From positions 67,932 to 131,931 of the forward strand of contig CAITVN010000072.1 of the NCBI GenBank assembly GCA_903895855.1: DNA of 64,000 bases, given 5' to 3'. This document shows positions 6,024-58,107 of the stretch, in pieces. The DNA is from Oligoflexia bacterium. Its GTDB lineage: Bacteria; Bdellovibrionota; UBA1018. The notes under the pieces are model-generated. The model had not been told where the DNA came from and made no database searches. It saw only the letters and a list, made by a program, of their open reading frames with translations. Each line of letters opens with the position of its first letter. Positions within the stretch are counted from its first letter, which is position 1. The position numbers and the translations under genes were made by a program.

Positions 6024-6436
6024 TATCTACCTCCCCCGCCTTCTGATATTGCGTATTTGAGCATTCCCAGTTTTCTCTTGAGCATTTCGACAGAACCGTC
6101 ATAAATGAGCTGATTTTCAGCCATTTTTGCCATTTCTGACGAACGATTGACGGTATTGCCATCAAGCGACTCGATGCCGTTAGGGTCATCATAGATAACC
6201 GGATTAACCGGATCAGTGGGCTTTCGAGATATGTGCAGCGGCGAATTTACCTCTGGTTTCAACCCGTCGCCCACATCAAGAGCATCGCGTAACGCTGCCT
6301 CAAATTCGACAGCCTTGGCCTTGTACCCGGGCGTATCGGCGTTTGCAATATTTGAAGAAATGACATTTTGATTGAGGAGGCGAAGATTCAAAGATGTATT
6401 AAGGGCCCCAATCACTGGATCAAAACCATTATCCAT
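6023..6436 (-). CDS. flgB: flagellar basal-body rod protein FlgB
   Basis: 137 aa with ISSNIANADTPGYKA. The stop overlaps the flgC start (ATGA). Confidence 0.85.
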   Translation of the reverse strand: MDNGFDPVIGALNTSLNLRLLNQNVISSNIANADTPGYKAKAVEFEAALRDALDVGDGLKPEVNSPLHISRKPTDPVNPVIYDDPNGIESLDGNTVNRSSEMAKMAENQLIYDGSVEMLKRKLGMLKYAISEGGGGR

Positions 6437-51155: not shown

Positions 51156-51177
51156 TCACCAGCGGTTTTTACCCTAA

Positions 51178-52686
51178 CTATTCATCTGACTTAATTTCTG
51201 AATTATCTTTTGACTTTTCATCAAGTTTCTCGTCATCGGTCTTTCGCATGCCGAGGTCTTTCATTTTAATTTGAAGTCCTTTTCTGGACAACCCTAACTT
51301 ATCGGCAGCCTTGGTCACATTGCCGGCGGTTTCGTCAAGTGCTCGTTCAATGAGTTCTCGCTCGACTACCTGGGTCTGACGCTTCACAATTTCTTTGAAA
51401 CTTGAGGTTTCTAATGCAGACTCTTCGATAGGCTTCATCGCCCCAGTCAACCCCGAAACCGAAGCAATGTCTTCAGGCAAGTCTCTCACATCCAAAACAT
51501 CAGATTCACACATCAGAATCATGCGTTCGACTGCGTTCTCAAGCTGCCGAATATTTCCGGGCCACGAAAAATTTTTCAAAGCCATCAAAGCGGTCGGTGA
51601 CATTTTATCTATTTTCTTTTTTAGTTTTTCATTGAATCGCCCAATGAACTTTTTCACAATCAACTCAATGTCATTTTTTCGGTCACGAAGAGGTGGCAAG
51701 TGAATCGGCACCACATTGAGGCGATAGAACAGATCTTCTCGAAATCGACCCAGTTTGACTTCATTTTCAAGATCTTTATTGGTCGCAGCGATGATTCGAA
51801 CATTCACCTTGATCGTCGAAACTCCGCCCACTCGTTCAAATTCTTGTTCTTGAAGTGCCCTGAGCAACTTCACCTGCATCTCAAGTGGCATTTCAGCCAC
51901 CTCATCCAAAAACAGTGTGCCCTCGTCAGCCAACTCAAACCGCCCTGGCTTCGAGGTGACCGCGCCAGTAAACGCCCCTTTTTCATGGCCGAATAATTCA
52001 CTCTCTATCAGGGTCGCGGGTATCGCCGCACAATTGATTTTGATAAACGTTTTATCTTTGCGATCACTTCGACTGTGAATTTCTAGCGCAACCAATTCTT
52101 TTCCGGTTCCGCTTTCACCCCAAATTAAGACCGTCGTGGGTGATGCCGCTATTTTTCGAATCACCCGAAACACATCTTGAATGGCCTGAGAACTACCGAT
52201 AATAGAACTTTTATTCTCGAAGACCGAGTCAACTTCGGGCCCAGTCTCATCAGCCACCAAATTAACCGATGATTCTAGATCTTTTTCTCTTTCTTTTGCG
52301 GTTGCAACCGCTTTTTCAATTGAGCGCAAGAGTTCGGCCTGGTCAAACGGCTTAGTGATAAAATCAAAAGCACCTTGCTTGAGGGCTGACACCGCGGCCT
52401 CAACAGTACCGTAGGCTGTGATCATCACGACTGGCAAATTAGGTCGAACCGATTGCACTACTTTGAGTAAGCCCATTCCATCAAGGCCGGGCATGTAAAG
52501 ATCGGTAACCAAAGTGTCGATCGGCTTGTCAGACTCGATTATCTTGCGTGCTTCAAGCGGATCGTTCGTCGCCATGACTTCAAACCCGGCTCGCTCAAGC
52601 ACAGCCTTAACAATAAAGGTAAGGTTCTTTTCGTCGTCAACAACCAATACTCTACTTTTAGCTTTCGCATCACTAGCTTTTGTCAT
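51178..52686 (-). CDS. sigma-54-dependent response regulator (NtrC family)
   Basis: REC domain (VLVVDDE...DLYMPGLDG), AAA+ domain ([14 protein letters not shown]) and a Fis-type HTH. Overlaps the kinase gene by 4 nt. Confidence 0.9.
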
Positions 52687-54821
52687 TTCGCTTCAACCTT
52701 CATAGCGTAAGGTAGCACAATCGTAAAGCGAGCAAATCGCCCCTCTTCGCTGGTGACGTCAATTCTACCACGGTGAGCCTCAATGATACGACTGCAAATC
52801 GATAATCCAAGCCCAGTGCCACTAGAAGTGGTCGTGAAAAATGGAATAAAGATCTTATCGAGGTTTTCTTTCTTAATTCCAGGGCCATTATCTTCAATGC
52901 TCAAGAAAATTTCACGATTTAGGGCTTCACCCTCTAGCTCAATCGAAACTCGCACTTGACCGGCTGGCCTCCCCTCAAGTGCGCGGTAGCCATTCTGCAA
53001 TATATTGATGATCACTTGTTGAATTTGTTCGGGAGTACCGGTGATTCCAATCGATTCAGCCGATTCGGGTAGACTCACTTCGAGCTGCACAGCGGTAGAC
53101 AAACTCGGGCGCATGTGATCAACCGTCTTTACTAAGAGTTCTCTGAGATCAACCCACTTTTGCTCGATCGAGAAGGGCTTTGAATAGTCGAGAAACTGCG
53201 TGACCACGCGATTCAAGCGATCAACTTCTTCGATGATGATACGCAGAAAATGACTATCTGAACGCTCAACTCCCGGATCAAGGTATTGAGCCGCACCTTT
53301 TATCGCACCTAACGGATTTCTAATTTCATGGGCTAATCCTGCAGCCATTTCTCCCAAAGCGGCCAATCGCTCTTTTTCTCTCTGTCTGACGAAAATATCG
53401 AGGTTTCGCAACGCTTTTGCTGCTGCCTCAAAATAGGGATAAAGTATCTGTAAAAACCCCCAGTCTCCACCCCACGGTTCTGGAGGAGTGGGATTCTTAA
53501 AAATGACAAATCCGTATACTTTATCGCCGTCCATCAACGGTATCAAGAGATTAGCCTGAAATGACTTTAGGCCCTGAATTAGAATAGTCAACTGAGCTCG
53601 TTGAGTACGACTCGCCAATCGCTCTAATTCGCCCTCTAACAGAGCGTCTAACACCACAGGTATTTCACCCTTCTTTTTTTGCCTTTCACAAAACTCAACT
53701 AAAGGGTGATGCACCAACACTTCTCTGGGAATATCTCGGGCCAACCCTTCAGCCCGATCGGGTAAACGTACCTTACGAAATTTCGAGCCATCTCGCCGTA
53801 GTAAATACAGAGTCGACATTTCTGGTGCTAAGATTTGATCAATGACCCCAAATAGGTTTTGAAATAGCCCACCCAGATCAATCACATGGGTCAATCGCTG
53901 CTGCGACTCGAGCAGGGATTGTTCTAGTTTCTGGTATTTTTTACTCAACAAAGTTTGAGTAAGAACGCGTACGAAAGTTCGTAACGGGTCAAGAAGCATG
54001 AGTATTAAGAAAGAGGCAATGAACGAGTTGAGAAAGAACAATCCCGGACTGTTCTGAATCCACGCCACGAGTAACGAATAGACTCCAGTGAGAGTAAGAG
54101 CGACAACCAAGAGCACCAGAAATCTCGAAAAAAGTGCACCGAAGTTCAGCACCCGCTGCTGGGTAACCGCTTGACTGATAAAAAATAAATAGGCGGTTAA
54201 CCCCAAATTGCCGAACGAAGGTAGAACCTTGCCAAGACTCGGTACGTGATCCATCACTGACGTACAAAGAACCAATAGACCACCGATGTAAATAAAATGC
54301 CTTCGTTGAGTCAAACCCAGTACTGGAAGTTTCGCAATCTGACGAAAATCACGAGGAAGAGTTCGATCCTCCCACATTAAATGGGCCACTTCGAATACCA
54401 GCAATGCAGGCGAAAAATAGATGGTGTTCAGTACCCACGAAATAGAATCCATTCGAAGTACCCACAAGCCAGTCAACACGACAGCGAAAAGTAGAGAGAA
54501 CTCAAAAATTCGTTTCGACAGAGCGGCTGACTTTCTCGTCAAAACTTGCACGAAGGTCAAGCTACTGGGACCGATCCAGATACTAAAGAATAGATGCCAA
54601 CGGTACCAACCCACTCCTGGCCAAATTTTCTCTAACGAGAAAAATAGAGCCCAAAAGGTAATCACGCCACACATAACGGCAAATGCGACATAGAGTGTGT
54701 TTCGAACGTTCCTGGCTAGGGCTGAGAGGCCTAGGGCCAAACTAGACAAACAGACCCAAAGCGAAGATTGACCAAGGATATCCATAGAATCCACTTTTTC
54801 AGACAAATGCCCTACCGTCAA
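52683..54821 (-). CDS. membrane sensor histidine kinase
   Basis: About eight N-terminal TM helices, H-box HEIRNPL and HATPase_c motifs (NGxxA, G1/G2 boxes). Confidence 0.85.
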   Translation of the reverse strand: MTVGHLSEKVDSMDILGQSSLWVCLSSLALGLSALARNVRNTLYVAFAVMCGVITFWALFFSLEKIWPGVGWYRWHLFFSIWIGPSSLTFVQVLTRKSAALSKRIFEFSLLFAVVLTGLWVLRMDSISWVLNTIYFSPALLVFEVAHLMWEDRTLPRDFRQIAKLPVLGLTQRRHFIYIGGLLVLCTSVMDHVPSLGKVLPSFGNLGLTAYLFFISQAVTQQRVLNFGALFSRFLVLLVVALTLTGVYSLLVAWIQNSPGLFFLNSFIASFLILMLLDPLRTFVRVLTQTLLSKKYQKLEQSLLESQQRLTHVIDLGGLFQNLFGVIDQILAPEMSTLYLLRRDGSKFRKVRLPDRAEGLARDIPREVLVHHPLVEFCERQKKKGEIPVVLDALLEGELERLASRTQRAQLTILIQGLKSFQANLLIPLMDGDKVYGFVIFKNPTPPEPWGGDWGFLQILYPYFEAAAKALRNLDIFVRQREKERLAALGEMAAGLAHEIRNPLGAIKGAAQYLDPGVERSDSHFLRIIIEEVDRLNRVVTQFLDYSKPFSIEQKWVDLRELLVKTVDHMRPSLSTAVQLEVSLPESAESIGITGTPEQIQQVIINILQNGYRALEGRPAGQVRVSIELEGEALNREIFLSIEDNGPGIKKENLDKIFIPFFTTTSSGTGLGLSICSRIIEAHRGRIDVTSEEGRFARFTIVLPYAMKVEAK

Positions 54822-55403: not shown

Positions 55404-56237
55404 TCAACGACTCACATTGAGATCAACTCGATCATTTTTTTTCATCATCTGCCAAATTTTCAGTTGGCGAATCACGCGCGCCACCCCTTCTAGTAGGGCA
55501 ATCACGACACCATGAATGCCATCTCGGTAGCCTTGATAATAGAACAGAGTTTTTAAGAAATGAGCAGGAAAGGCTGCAATCATCCGAAAGAGATGCGTTC
55601 TCTGCCCCTGCTCAAACCGATCTTTGGCTTCGATCGTGGTGTAGCGGTTCACCTTATCTAAAAATTTTTCAATCGTTAAATCTGACTTATGTAGTAATGG
55701 TTCATGAATTTCTCCTGGTGGCTTCAAAAATACCGGATACTCATGAACATCATTGATGTAGCGAACCCCCGTTTTACAAAAAAATCGGTCTTGATAGCTG
55801 GGATTCCACATTCCATGATGAATCGGTCTGCCCATGAAAAACTCACAGCGGCGCACTTTATAGGCTTGACGTTCGAGCGCCACCGAATCACTAAGAATTT
55901 CCCGAATTCGCGTGCGCAACTCTGGGGTACAGATTTCATCAGCATCGACCACGAAAACCCACTCATGCATCGACTGATCGAGTGAAAAATTTCGCTGATC
56001 TTTAAAGCCGGTCCAAGCCCGTTGAATAACCCTAATTCGTGCAGCCCAGGGTTTTGAGGGATCTAAGCACAGCTCGCGAGTTCGATCAGTGCTATTAGCA
56101 TCAACCACGATAATTTCGTCTGCCCAACCTAAACTTTCGAGGCAATTCGAAATTTTCATTTCTTCATTGAACGTGATGATAAGTGCAGAAACTGATTTCA
56201 TGTCGATTTTGTACCGCAAGCCGAAAGCTACAGTCAA
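55404..56237 (-). CDS. family 2 glycosyltransferase
   Basis: ALIITFNEE and VVDANSTD (DxD) motifs of GT2. Confidence 0.7.
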   Translation of the reverse strand: MTVAFGLRYKIDMKSVSALIITFNEEMKISNCLESLGWADEIIVVDANSTDRTRELCLDPSKPWAARIRVIQRAWTGFKDQRNFSLDQSMHEWVFVVDADEICTPELRTRIREILSDSVALERQAYKVRRCEFFMGRPIHHGMWNPSYQDRFFCKTGVRYINDVHEYPVFLKPPGEIHEPLLHKSDLTIEKFLDKVNRYTTIEAKDRFEQGQRTHLFRMIAAFPAHFLKTLFYYQGYRDGIHGVVIALLEGVARVIRQLKIWQMMKKNDRVDLNVSR

Positions 56238-56259: not shown

Positions 56260-56913
56260 TTATTGAGATAATGACTGAAGCTTGACTAGCTCGAGATAAC
56301 AGTCCTGAAGAGTGTATACCATTCCTTCAACACGGCCTTGCAGGGCATAGCCGTAAAGTACGACCATCTTCTTAGCCACCATCGAAAGTTCAGCTTTACC
56401 TGAAACATTCGCGGGGCCCTTTGAAAGTTCGATCCGCTGTGCTTCATCGTCTAAGAAAGCCTGAGTCGTCGAAAGCAATTGCAATGACCATCGACTCCAG
56501 TAAACTCGATCTCGCTCTGCGAGAGGTAGCCAGTTTCGACCGGCCGCTGCTAGGGTGCGCCCTTTACCGGCTTTGTTAGGCTCAGGCTTGATCCAAATGT
56601 CGGCTACTTTTAGCTCGTTATTGGGGTCTTCTAATTCTGGCGCAAGCAAATCGGGATGAGACCAAGGCTTGAGCGCGAACAAGGCGGCCTCAATCTTCGA
56701 GAAAAGAAATCTCGAACTGCGAAGACTGAGCTCACTTTGATCATCTCTAGCCGTCTGTTGTCGACCAGACCCGCCGAGGGACCTGTGCGTTGCTGCAGAC
56801 GTGGCATCATTAAGGCTAGCGGTCTGACAGGCAACCAATGAGCATGAAGCTATCCAGCAGGTCAACGCCTGGCTAATCTGTCGGGTAGTAAGTCTCGTAG
56901 TCAGCTTCATCAC
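56260..56913 (-). CDS. hypothetical lipoprotein
   Basis: GTG start. Signal-like N-terminus with a possible lipobox LVAC. No recognised domain. Confidence 0.45.
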   Translation of the reverse strand: MMKLTTRLTTRQISQALTCWIASCSLVACQTASLNDATSAATHRSLGGSGRQQTARDDQSELSLRSSRFLFSKIEAALFALKPWSHPDLLAPELEDPNNELKVADIWIKPEPNKAGKGRTLAAAGRNWLPLAERDRVYWSRWSLQLLSTTQAFLDDEAQRIELSKGPANVSGKAELSMVAKKMVVLYGYALQGRVEGMVYTLQDCYLELVKLQSLSQ

Positions 56914-56961
56914 GAAGACCTATCGGCAAATAGTTCTGTAACCTTTTTACCGACTGTCATT

Positions 56962-57045
56962 TTTTCGAATTATTTCAATTTTTTCGACCGCCAGAATTTT
57001 TTCGAATTATTTTTAAAATTATTTTCGAATTATTTTCGAATTATT
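56962..57045. repeat. AT-rich tandem array of TTTTCGAATTAT(T) units with about 11-bp period
   Basis: Copies start at 56962, 56981 (TTTTCGACC variant), 56999, 57011 (TTTTAAAATTAT variant), 57022 and 57033. The last four are head-to-tail at 11-12 bp spacing. Each copy contains the palindrome TTCGAA. Confidence 0.8.
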
Positions 57046-57157
57046 TTTTGAAAAAAACAGATTCAACAAACTAAAATCACTACACAAACTAATTCACTCA
57101 GTTTTATCTCTGACTGTTTTAGTAAGATATAAGTACCCGGAAACGTTCATTTTTTCT

Positions 57158-57184
57158 TAAAGCTGCCAATTCTGTGACCGATAG
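57158..57184 (+). promoter_or_regulatory. sigma-28 (FliA)-type promoter for the flagellin gene
   Basis: TAAAG followed by 15 nt and then CCGATAG, against the consensus TAAA-N15-GCCGATAA. It lies about 90 nt upstream of the flagellin ATG. A GGAGA Shine-Dalgarno sits 8 nt before the ATG. Confidence 0.7.
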
Positions 57185-57273
57185 GATTGTTGTAAGCAGG
57201 CAGGGATTGCCGGCATACAAAAGAGGAAACAAAATTCACGGAGGAATTGATTCGATGAAACAAGGAGATTGAA

Positions 57274-58107
57274 ATGTCACTGCGTATCAATACAAATATT
57301 CAAGCAATCTCTGCTCAAAGACATTTGGCAAACAATGTCGGTAAGCAGAACGCGGCTCTAGAGCACCTAGCCTCTGGAACGAGAATCAACCGTGCTGGGG
57401 ACGATGCTGCCGGTTTAGCAATCAGCGAAAAGTTGAAGGCTAATATCAGAAGCATGAAGCAAGCAACTCGAAATGCCAACGATGGTATCTCGCTGGTGCA
57501 GGTGGCTGAAGGCGGAATGAATGAAGTTTCGAACATTCTTATCAGAATGCGCGAACTTTCAATTCAGAGTTCTTCTGACACGATAGCCCAGCCAGAACGA
57601 CAATTCGTTGACAAAGAAATTCAAAATCTCAAGAGTGAAATCGAACGTATCGGTCAAAGTTCAGAATTCAACGGCGTTAAACTGTTGAATGGAACCGCGG
57701 GTCCACTTGATATTCAAATCGGGATCAACAACGTTTCAGCTGAAGATCGCTTCGTTTTCGATACGTCGATTCTAACCACTACTCTGGGTTCGCTCAAAAT
57801 TGGTGATGTTTCGACAAAGAATAAAGAAGAAGCCCAAGGCAACATGGCAATGATTGACGCAGCCATGCAACAGCTCAACGAAAATCGTTCGAGTTTGGGT
57901 GCTCTTCAAAATCGACTCACCAGTTCGATCAGCAACTTGAATCTCTATCGTGAGAATTTAGAAGGCGCCAATAGCCGAATTCGCGATACTGACATGGCTG
58001 AAGAAACCAGTGAGCTCACTAAGCAAAACATCTTGACCCAAGCCAACGTCTCGGTGTTGTCGCAAGCGAATCAAAATCCACAGCTTGCGATCAAATTATT
58101 GAGCTAA
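57274..58107 (+). CDS. fliC: flagellin
   Basis: 277 aa with conserved flagellin N-terminus (MSLRINTNIQA...AGLAISEK) and C-terminus (LSQANQNPQLAIKLLS). The central domain is short. Confidence 0.9.
   Translation: MSLRINTNIQAISAQRHLANNVGKQNAALEHLASGTRINRAGDDAAGLAISEKLKANIRSMKQATRNANDGISLVQVAEGGMNEVSNILIRMRELSIQSSSDTIAQPERQFVDKEIQNLKSEIERIGQSSEFNGVKLLNGTAGPLDIQIGINNVSAEDRFVFDTSILTTTLGSLKIGDVSTKNKEEAQGNMAMIDAAMQQLNENRSSLGALQNRLTSSISNLNLYRENLEGANSRIRDTDMAEETSELTKQNILTQANVSVLSQANQNPQLAIKLLS

Follow-up and report, generated by a model that had tools for sequence, protein, structure and literature searches.

Direct-repeat arrays with an 11-bp period are typical of the sites bound by PhoB and ArcA, and activators of the NtrC type usually use inverted repeats. 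Tandem repeats in promoter regions are also known as contingency loci, among them the TA repeats between the divergent hifA and hifB promoters of Haemophilus influenzae and the TAAA repeats upstream of nadA in Neisseria meningitidis. For DNA in which tracts of A and T recur, the order of the two matters: in the experiments attributed to Hagerman with A4T4 and T4A4 sequences, DNA of the T4A4 polarity was reportedly straight and that of the A4T4 polarity curved. AT-rich DNA can act at closer quarters, as in the UP element of the sigma-D-dependent hag promoter of Bacillus subtilis, which Fredrick and coworkers are said to have placed, in 1995, at about −40 to −60. In the predatory bacterium Bdellovibrio bacteriovorus, a FliA (sigma-28) consensus, TTAAG-N16-CCGATA, was recognized in 92 of 140 attack-phase promoters (Karunker et al., 2013; PMC3627812).

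We have analysed a 64-kb stretch of DNA (the window) from a Bdellovibrio-like lineage, in which a T-rich array with an 11-bp period lies between a flagellin gene and a divergent gene for a small lipoprotein, each with a predicted promoter of the FliA type (Table 1). As a repeat, the array is specific to the lineage and belongs to a known, ordinary kind. Here we describe the conserved modules on either side of it, consider what the array itself might be, and compare the locus with the systems just mentioned.

The flagellin locus and its back-to-back promoters

The relatives of this flagellin all come from metagenome-assembled genomes of Bdellovibrionota, labelled Bacteriovoracaceae, Oligoflexia or Bdellovibrionales, the closest being 74% identical among genomes and 75% identical among 5.8 billion proteins. 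A histidine kinase gene and the small ORF upstream are syntenic in many Bdellovibrionota loci, which are therefore truly orthologous. Beyond the kinase, the contigs of this population encode an NtrC-type sigma-54 activator. The family-2 glycosyltransferase (GT2) gene has no counterpart in those syntenic loci that retain the kinase, the small ORF and the lipoprotein gene, and it appears, from this comparison of gene order, to be a second lineage-specific insertion at the locus (the other being the one that holds the array, described below).

Table 1. Features of the flagellin locus (positions in the window unless stated otherwise)
Feature	Position	Strand	Basis or remarks
Histidine kinase gene	51175–54821 (in L082, 12090–15733)	−	Adjoins the flagellin locus
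GT2 gene	55404–56237	−	Flanked by the lipoprotein gene and the small ORF
Divergent small lipoprotein gene	56260–56910	−	Lipobox LVAC; start ATG 56910 or GTG 56913
FliA-like promoter of the lipoprotein gene, AAAAG-N16-CCGATA	56921–56947	−	Conserved element, spacing and place
AT-rich insertion, about 147 bp (147–149)	56950–57096		Alignment to compact orthologous promoter regions
T-rich repeat array	56959–57057	+	Sequence, TRF, copy scan, shuffles
Sigma-70-like match, TTGAAA-18-TAAAAT	57048–57077	+	At the array's downstream edge; no significance relative to shuffles
Conserved operator-like block	57097–57135		CTGAC..N..(T)CAGG, then GTATAAGT; TATAAGT at 57128–57134
FliA (sigma-28)-type promoter of the flagellin gene, TTAAA-N16-CCGATA	57157–57183	+	Match and orthologues
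Flagellin gene	57274–58107	+	Flagellin_N and Flagellin_C

The original prediction, made from the letters of the sequence, placed a FliA-type promoter in front of the flagellin gene and spoke of a divergent promoter region, and both suggestions are borne out. The flagellin promoter has one mismatch to TTAAG-N16-CCGATA (10 of 11 positions) and is kept in its orthologues, across 31 loci, so on the evidence of alignment, which also shows a conserved tract of T residues (T6–T8; T6 at 57150–57155 in the window) immediately 5′ of the promoter, the flagellin gene would be driven by a conserved, predicted sigma-28 promoter. The lipoprotein gene likewise has its own conserved FliA-like promoter. This has two mismatches (9 of 11 positions), and matches of that quality numbered 20 in the window against 11.6 expected, which taken alone is near chance, so its support comes from the conservation of element, spacing and place: the same element with the same spacing (TAAAG-N16-CCGATG in the compact orthologues discussed below) is found in at least 12 orthologues, and it occupies the same place in L036, L038, L033, L049, L043, L002, L020 and L190. 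A search of 5.8 billion proteins for homologues of the lipoprotein itself returned identical copies only, and weak tblastn matches (28–35% identity) were found at the same position in L007, L012, L039 and L020. The −10 element ends 10 nt from the ATG start codon, or 7 nt from the alternative GTG, and in L039, L020 and L007 the corresponding −10 (CCGATAGG or CCGATGGG) ends about 8–10 nt 5′ of the ATG. To judge from these distances, the lipoprotein mRNA would be leaderless or almost so; in the group comprising L036, L038, L033 and L049, the leader is about 50 nt long instead.

The flagellin promoter is accompanied by a conserved operator-like block (CTGAC..N..CAGGTATAAGT), which in 29 of the 31 loci listed (L188 and L189 being without it) keeps a constant distance upstream of the −35 element. 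Its consensus is an inverted repeat, TACCTGA-N7–9-TCAGGTA, which runs into GTATAAGT; in the window the arms read ATCT...AGAT rather than ACCT...AGGT, with both sides changed. From its sequence and position, this block may serve as a site for a regulator, or else as a second, weak promoter, which in the compact forms would read TTTACC-17-TATAAG.

A repeat array within a lineage-specific insertion

A repeat upstream of the flagellin promoter, with its units head to tail at intervals of 11–12 bp, had been the central point of the original prediction, and it stands. There are four exact copies of TTTTCGAATTAT (at 56962–56973, 56999–57010, 57022–57033 and 57033–57044) and three degenerate units (TTTTCGACCGCC at 56981–56992, TTTTAAAATTAT at 57011–57022 and TTTTTTGAAAAA at 57044–57055), and from 56999 onward the distances from the start of one unit to the start of the next are 12, 11, 11 and 11 bp. 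TRF gives a period of 11 with 4.9 copies at 56994–57047 (score 78), the top tandem repeat of the 64 kb. No other short-period tandem repeat in the window comes close to it in strength, and among 103 related flagellin upstream regions it is second only to that of L011 (period 21 bp). No further copy of TTTTCGAATTAT with up to one mismatch occurs elsewhere in the 64 kb, and when the local sequence was shuffled 5000 times with its dinucleotides preserved, no shuffle reached a 10-mer seen four times. No other 100 bp of the window are as rich in AT as this stretch (GC 0.17), which is also the sole region with a GC content of 0.24 or less. All 12 positions are identical across the four exact copies, the first and third of which share 16 nt; only two perfect units are adjacent to each other; the 3′ end of the array is a near-palindrome, TTTTTTGAAAAAAA. 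The palindrome TTCGAA, which had been attributed to every unit, is carried by only four of the six or seven, and because its symmetry ends at 6 bp, the unit is to be regarded as a directional direct repeat.

Several other interpretations of the units were tried and set aside. The hexamer TTCGAA is neither depleted nor enriched in the window (65 observed, 67 expected), and since it is not avoided, the array bears no signature of restriction–modification, such as a cluster of restriction or methylation sites. Derivation of the units from the T-tract of the flagellin promoter, with which they have TCATTTTTTC in common, was rejected, as 124 of 2000 shuffles reached the same local alignment. A replication origin with iterons was rejected on skew and gene context: cumulative GC skew falls near-steadily across 55–59 kb with no change of sign, the neighbouring genes (flagellin and aromatic amino-acid genes) are not origin-linked, and a reading of the intergenic sequence revealed no 9-mer resembling a DnaA box. 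The region gave no match to Rfam families.

The −35 elements of the two divergent promoters are 61–63 bp apart in at least 12 syntenic Bdellovibrionota loci and 76 bp apart in L020, and L190 (74% identity) has the compact form of spacer too. In the window this distance is 210 bp, and the array therefore lies inside an insertion of about 147 bp. Placed by alignment to the compact forms and by our own reading of the gap position, the extra DNA sits between the −35 element of the lipoprotein promoter and the conserved block. The array takes up two-thirds of it, and the window's most AT-rich 100 bp fall within it; the modules on its flanks (both promoters and the block) are intact. The insertion also holds a second small direct repeat (ACAAACTAA..TCAC), the copies of which (ACAAACTAAAATCAC at 57066–57080 and ACAAACTAATTCAC at 57084–57097) are 18 bp apart and unrelated to the T-rich unit.

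A TTCGAA array was found in none of about 105 related flagellin upstream regions, and the array is absent from three of the closest loci, which were fetched. At the same junction, L012, L004 and L006 carry AT-rich expansions of their own, unrelated to this one, in which there are small, weak duplications. Five contigs of the same population, from several samples (which are possibly not independent), are identical in the intergenic region and in copy number. As far as these alignments go, then, two promoter modules that are otherwise tightly conserved are separated here by a lineage-specific insertion that holds the array, and an insertion containing such an array is, from the genomes compared, known only from this Bdellovibrio-like lineage.

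What might the array be?

The main reading in the original prediction was that the array is intrinsically curved or UP-like DNA, by which transcription would be stimulated. Its T-tracts start at 56960, 56979, 56997, 57010, 57022, 57033 and 57044, the last five being 11–13 bp apart; in favour of the proposal, tracts recur at these intervals over 57010–57044 and the mean period across the array is 10.5 bp. The autocorrelation at lag 11 reaches only z = 2.2. Helix trajectories were calculated with three dinucleotide wedge models (Bolshoy–Trifonov, De Santis and a plain AA wedge), which gave correct results for the controls, the ratio of end-to-end distance to contour length over 100 bp being 0.33–0.47 for phased A6, 0.45–0.62 for A4T4 and 0.94–0.996 for T4A4. 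The ratio for the array was 0.92–0.96 against a window mean of 0.96–0.975, which in the three models places it only among the top 6–14% of the window's 100-bp stretches, and even 13 ideal units in tandem came out as no more than mildly curved (0.96 and 0.89). A local bend peak within the top 1% or so, at the T6/A7 junction near 57054, speaks for curvature, but the core of the 11-bp tandem is among the straightest parts. The units have the T-then-A (TnAn) polarity of the straight type (TTTTCGAA, TTTTTAAAA, TTTTTTGAAAAAAA) and the T-tract at 56997 falls out of register by half a helical turn, on the opposite face, which would explain why the array is not predicted to be curved. What of an UP element? 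Relative to the lipoprotein promoter, the first unit is at about −48 to −53; relative to the sigma-70-like match, the last units are at −37 to −60; and GAATTATTTTC resembles AAAWWTWTTTT, the distal UP subsite. At the flagellin promoter, however, for which this role had been suggested, it is excluded, because the array lies too far upstream (103–196 bp from the −35 element), and the position in question is filled by the conserved T-tract; at the lipoprotein promoter the first unit alone falls within UP range (−40 to −60) and is a poor match to the UP consensus; and sigma-70-like matches occur at chance level (four found, 3.2 expected). No IHF consensus was found in the intergenic region. All in all, we consider it very unlikely that the array acts as curved or UP-like DNA. 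It is less improbable, though still unlikely, that the units are sites for a lineage-specific DNA-binding protein that modulates one or both FliA promoters, whether an OmpR/PhoB-type response regulator bound head to tail at 11 bp or a nucleoid-associated protein with a preference for AT-rich DNA that contains a CG step. We keep such an array of sites under consideration because tandem winged-helix regulators use directional 11-bp repeats: as in OmpR/PhoB-like operators, where directional spacing is 10–11 bp, the units here are directional and follow each other at 11–12 bp over five successive positions, in an array extending from about −40 upstream of the lipoprotein promoter and lying 100–200 bp upstream of that of the flagellin gene. 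Four of them are fully identical, and the identity of non-adjacent copies could also reflect selection; against this, the identity extends over positions that selected arrays of sites normally let drift. The motif is conserved in no orthologue among the roughly 105 related upstream regions and has no second occurrence in the 64 kb. (As a candidate regulon motif in the window it was likewise rejected, matches with two mismatches, including a cluster at 20.9–22.4 kb, being inside long ORFs and near chance.) The symmetry, confined to the 6 bp of TTCGAA, speaks against a site for a symmetric dimer, and no locus-specific regulator presents itself as a candidate, the neighbour being an activator of the NtrC type. 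Some likeness between TCGAATTATT and TCGATAAATT, the H-NS nucleation motif, favours a nucleoid-associated protein, but we know of no H-NS in this phylum.

The array might also be an accident of another kind, the remnant of a mobile element resembling a MITE, or a slippage-prone contingency repeat by which flagellin expression is varied. A weak inverted repeat bounds it (TTTTTTCGAA at 56960 and TTTGAAAAAA at 57047), two of its units are in perfect tandem, and there has been lineage-specific change nearby, in that the GT2 gene is absent from syntenic loci. The inverted repeat is only 10 nt long and of low complexity, however, with no visible target-site duplication and no other copy in the window, and against a contingency repeat stands the identical copy number of five contigs from several samples. 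A scan of metagenomes with the 18-mer TTTCGAATTATTTTCGAA brought up 102 unrelated contigs that resemble the window in the repeat units only, none having homologous flanks or encoding a flagellin relative. In one of these occurrences (L122, an apparently Bacteroidota-like contig), the 11-mer of the array, ATTATTTTCGA, is repeated 6.5 times in perfect tandem at 6226–6297, 20 bp 5′ of the start of one of two paralogous genes for repeat-rich secreted proteins; this is taken as an independent occurrence. A mobile or contingency origin seems to us highly improbable.

A proposed young spacer between two promoters

The reading that we favour, at about an even chance of being right, is that the array is a young, lineage-specific, slippage-built AT-rich spacer, serving at most as a passive spacer or as an easily melted stretch; its sequence probably encodes no specific signal. 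We infer both the origin by slippage and the passive role in spacing or melting. A young expansion is favoured because other lineages have expanded the same junction differently and because there is neither conservation nor recurrence of the motif, and the full identity of the copies, together with the unrelated duplication next to them, fits recent duplication better than an old, selected array of sites. Local tandem duplication by replication slippage would have built the array within an AT-rich expansion of the spacer by about 147 bp, moving the back-to-back FliA promoters from about 62 bp to about 210 bp apart (some 14 extra helical turns). With the wider spacing, the two RNA polymerases and their upstream contacts would no longer overlap, the operator-like block would stay with the flagellin promoter only, and DNA that melts and flexes more readily than any other in the region would come to sit between divergent genes, where negative supercoils may be expected to build up.

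Some features count against a neutral spacer. As the strongest short-period repeat of the window, the array is not routine background, and by analogy the 11-bp spacing of its units would match what tandem winged-helix regulators use. The inserted 147–149 bp come near to an integral number of helical turns, a possible hint of constraint (though from a single case). It is conceivable, if quite unlikely, that the array is a newly evolved regulatory spacer, flexible and easily melted, which preserves the helical phase of the two FliA promoters (about 14.0 turns) and uncouples them, by recruiting a lineage-specific AT-binding protein at 11-bp registers or by acting as a sink for supercoiling caused by transcription. 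In every compact relative, the two promoters stand at the fixed distance of 61–63 bp, with the conserved operator-like block shared between them. If this reading is right, tandem duplication would have rewired a promoter region naturally in a lineage of predatory bacteria.

As things stand, the array itself matters little, short AT-rich tandem duplications being common in intergenic spacers. The locus may be of more interest as a natural experiment, in which a pair of sigma-28 promoters that is tight (61–63 bp) in many Bdellovibrionota is here 147 bp further apart: comparison of the compact and expanded forms could show whether close divergent FliA promoters interfere or cooperate. For flagellin control in predatory bacteria, the near-leaderless lipoprotein gene, the operator-like block and the CsrA-type GGA hairpin to which we now turn are probably more useful than the array.

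The flagellin leader

The 5′ leader of the flagellin mRNA contains a 13-nt motif, GGCAGGGATTGCC (57199–57211), which is invariant in 12 aligned orthologues and is predicted to fold into a hairpin with GGGAU in its loop. Further GGA motifs follow downstream in the leader, in CACGGAGGA (57237–57245) and in the ribosome-binding site AAGGAG (57262–57267). By analogy, this looks like translational control of flagellin by CsrA, as for hag in B. subtilis; the CsrA protein of B. bacteriovorus represses a hag reporter (PMC13443453). A sigma-54 promoter was considered for GGCAGGGATTGCC and rejected, because the offset from GG to TTGC is 8 and sigma-54 needs 10, and none was recognized anywhere in the flagellin upstream region.

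Comparison with known systems

With the curved DNA of phased A-tracts, the array has in common that its T- and A-tracts recur at close to one helical turn; it differs in their T-then-A polarity, in the drift of the interval between 11 and 13 bp, in having one unit on the opposite face, and in a predicted curvature that is ordinary. The hag promoter of B. subtilis resembles the flagellin promoter of the window in having AT-rich DNA upstream of a promoter of the sigma-28 family, but in hag the UP element is found at about −40 to −60, whereas the array is at −100 to −200 and the UP position is taken by the T6–T8 tract.

The PhoB boxes and multi-repeat ArcA sites of the OmpR/PhoB family are like the array in that several directional units of about 11 bp lie upstream of promoters. 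In those systems a core of 6–7 bp is conserved and the spacers drift, whereas here 12 of 12 positions are identical; nor are there here a cognate regulator, recurrence across a regulon, or conservation. The tracts of hifA/hifB and nadA are comparable as tandem repeats in a promoter region that are able to change its spacing, with that of hifA/hifB also being situated between divergent promoters; but contingency tracts are long, perfect and polymorphic, and the array has two perfect adjacent units and the same length in five contigs.

There is also a correspondence with the attack-phase FliA promoters of B. bacteriovorus (PMC3627812), to which both of the promoters that flank the array conform, with N16 spacers and 10 and 9 of 11 positions matched, respectively. 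An upstream repeat array is no part of that promoter type, and the orthologous promoters are without the array. The breadth described for the attack-phase regulon (PMC3627812) is reflected in the present locus, in which a flagellin and a non-flagellar surface lipoprotein share the same type of promoter.
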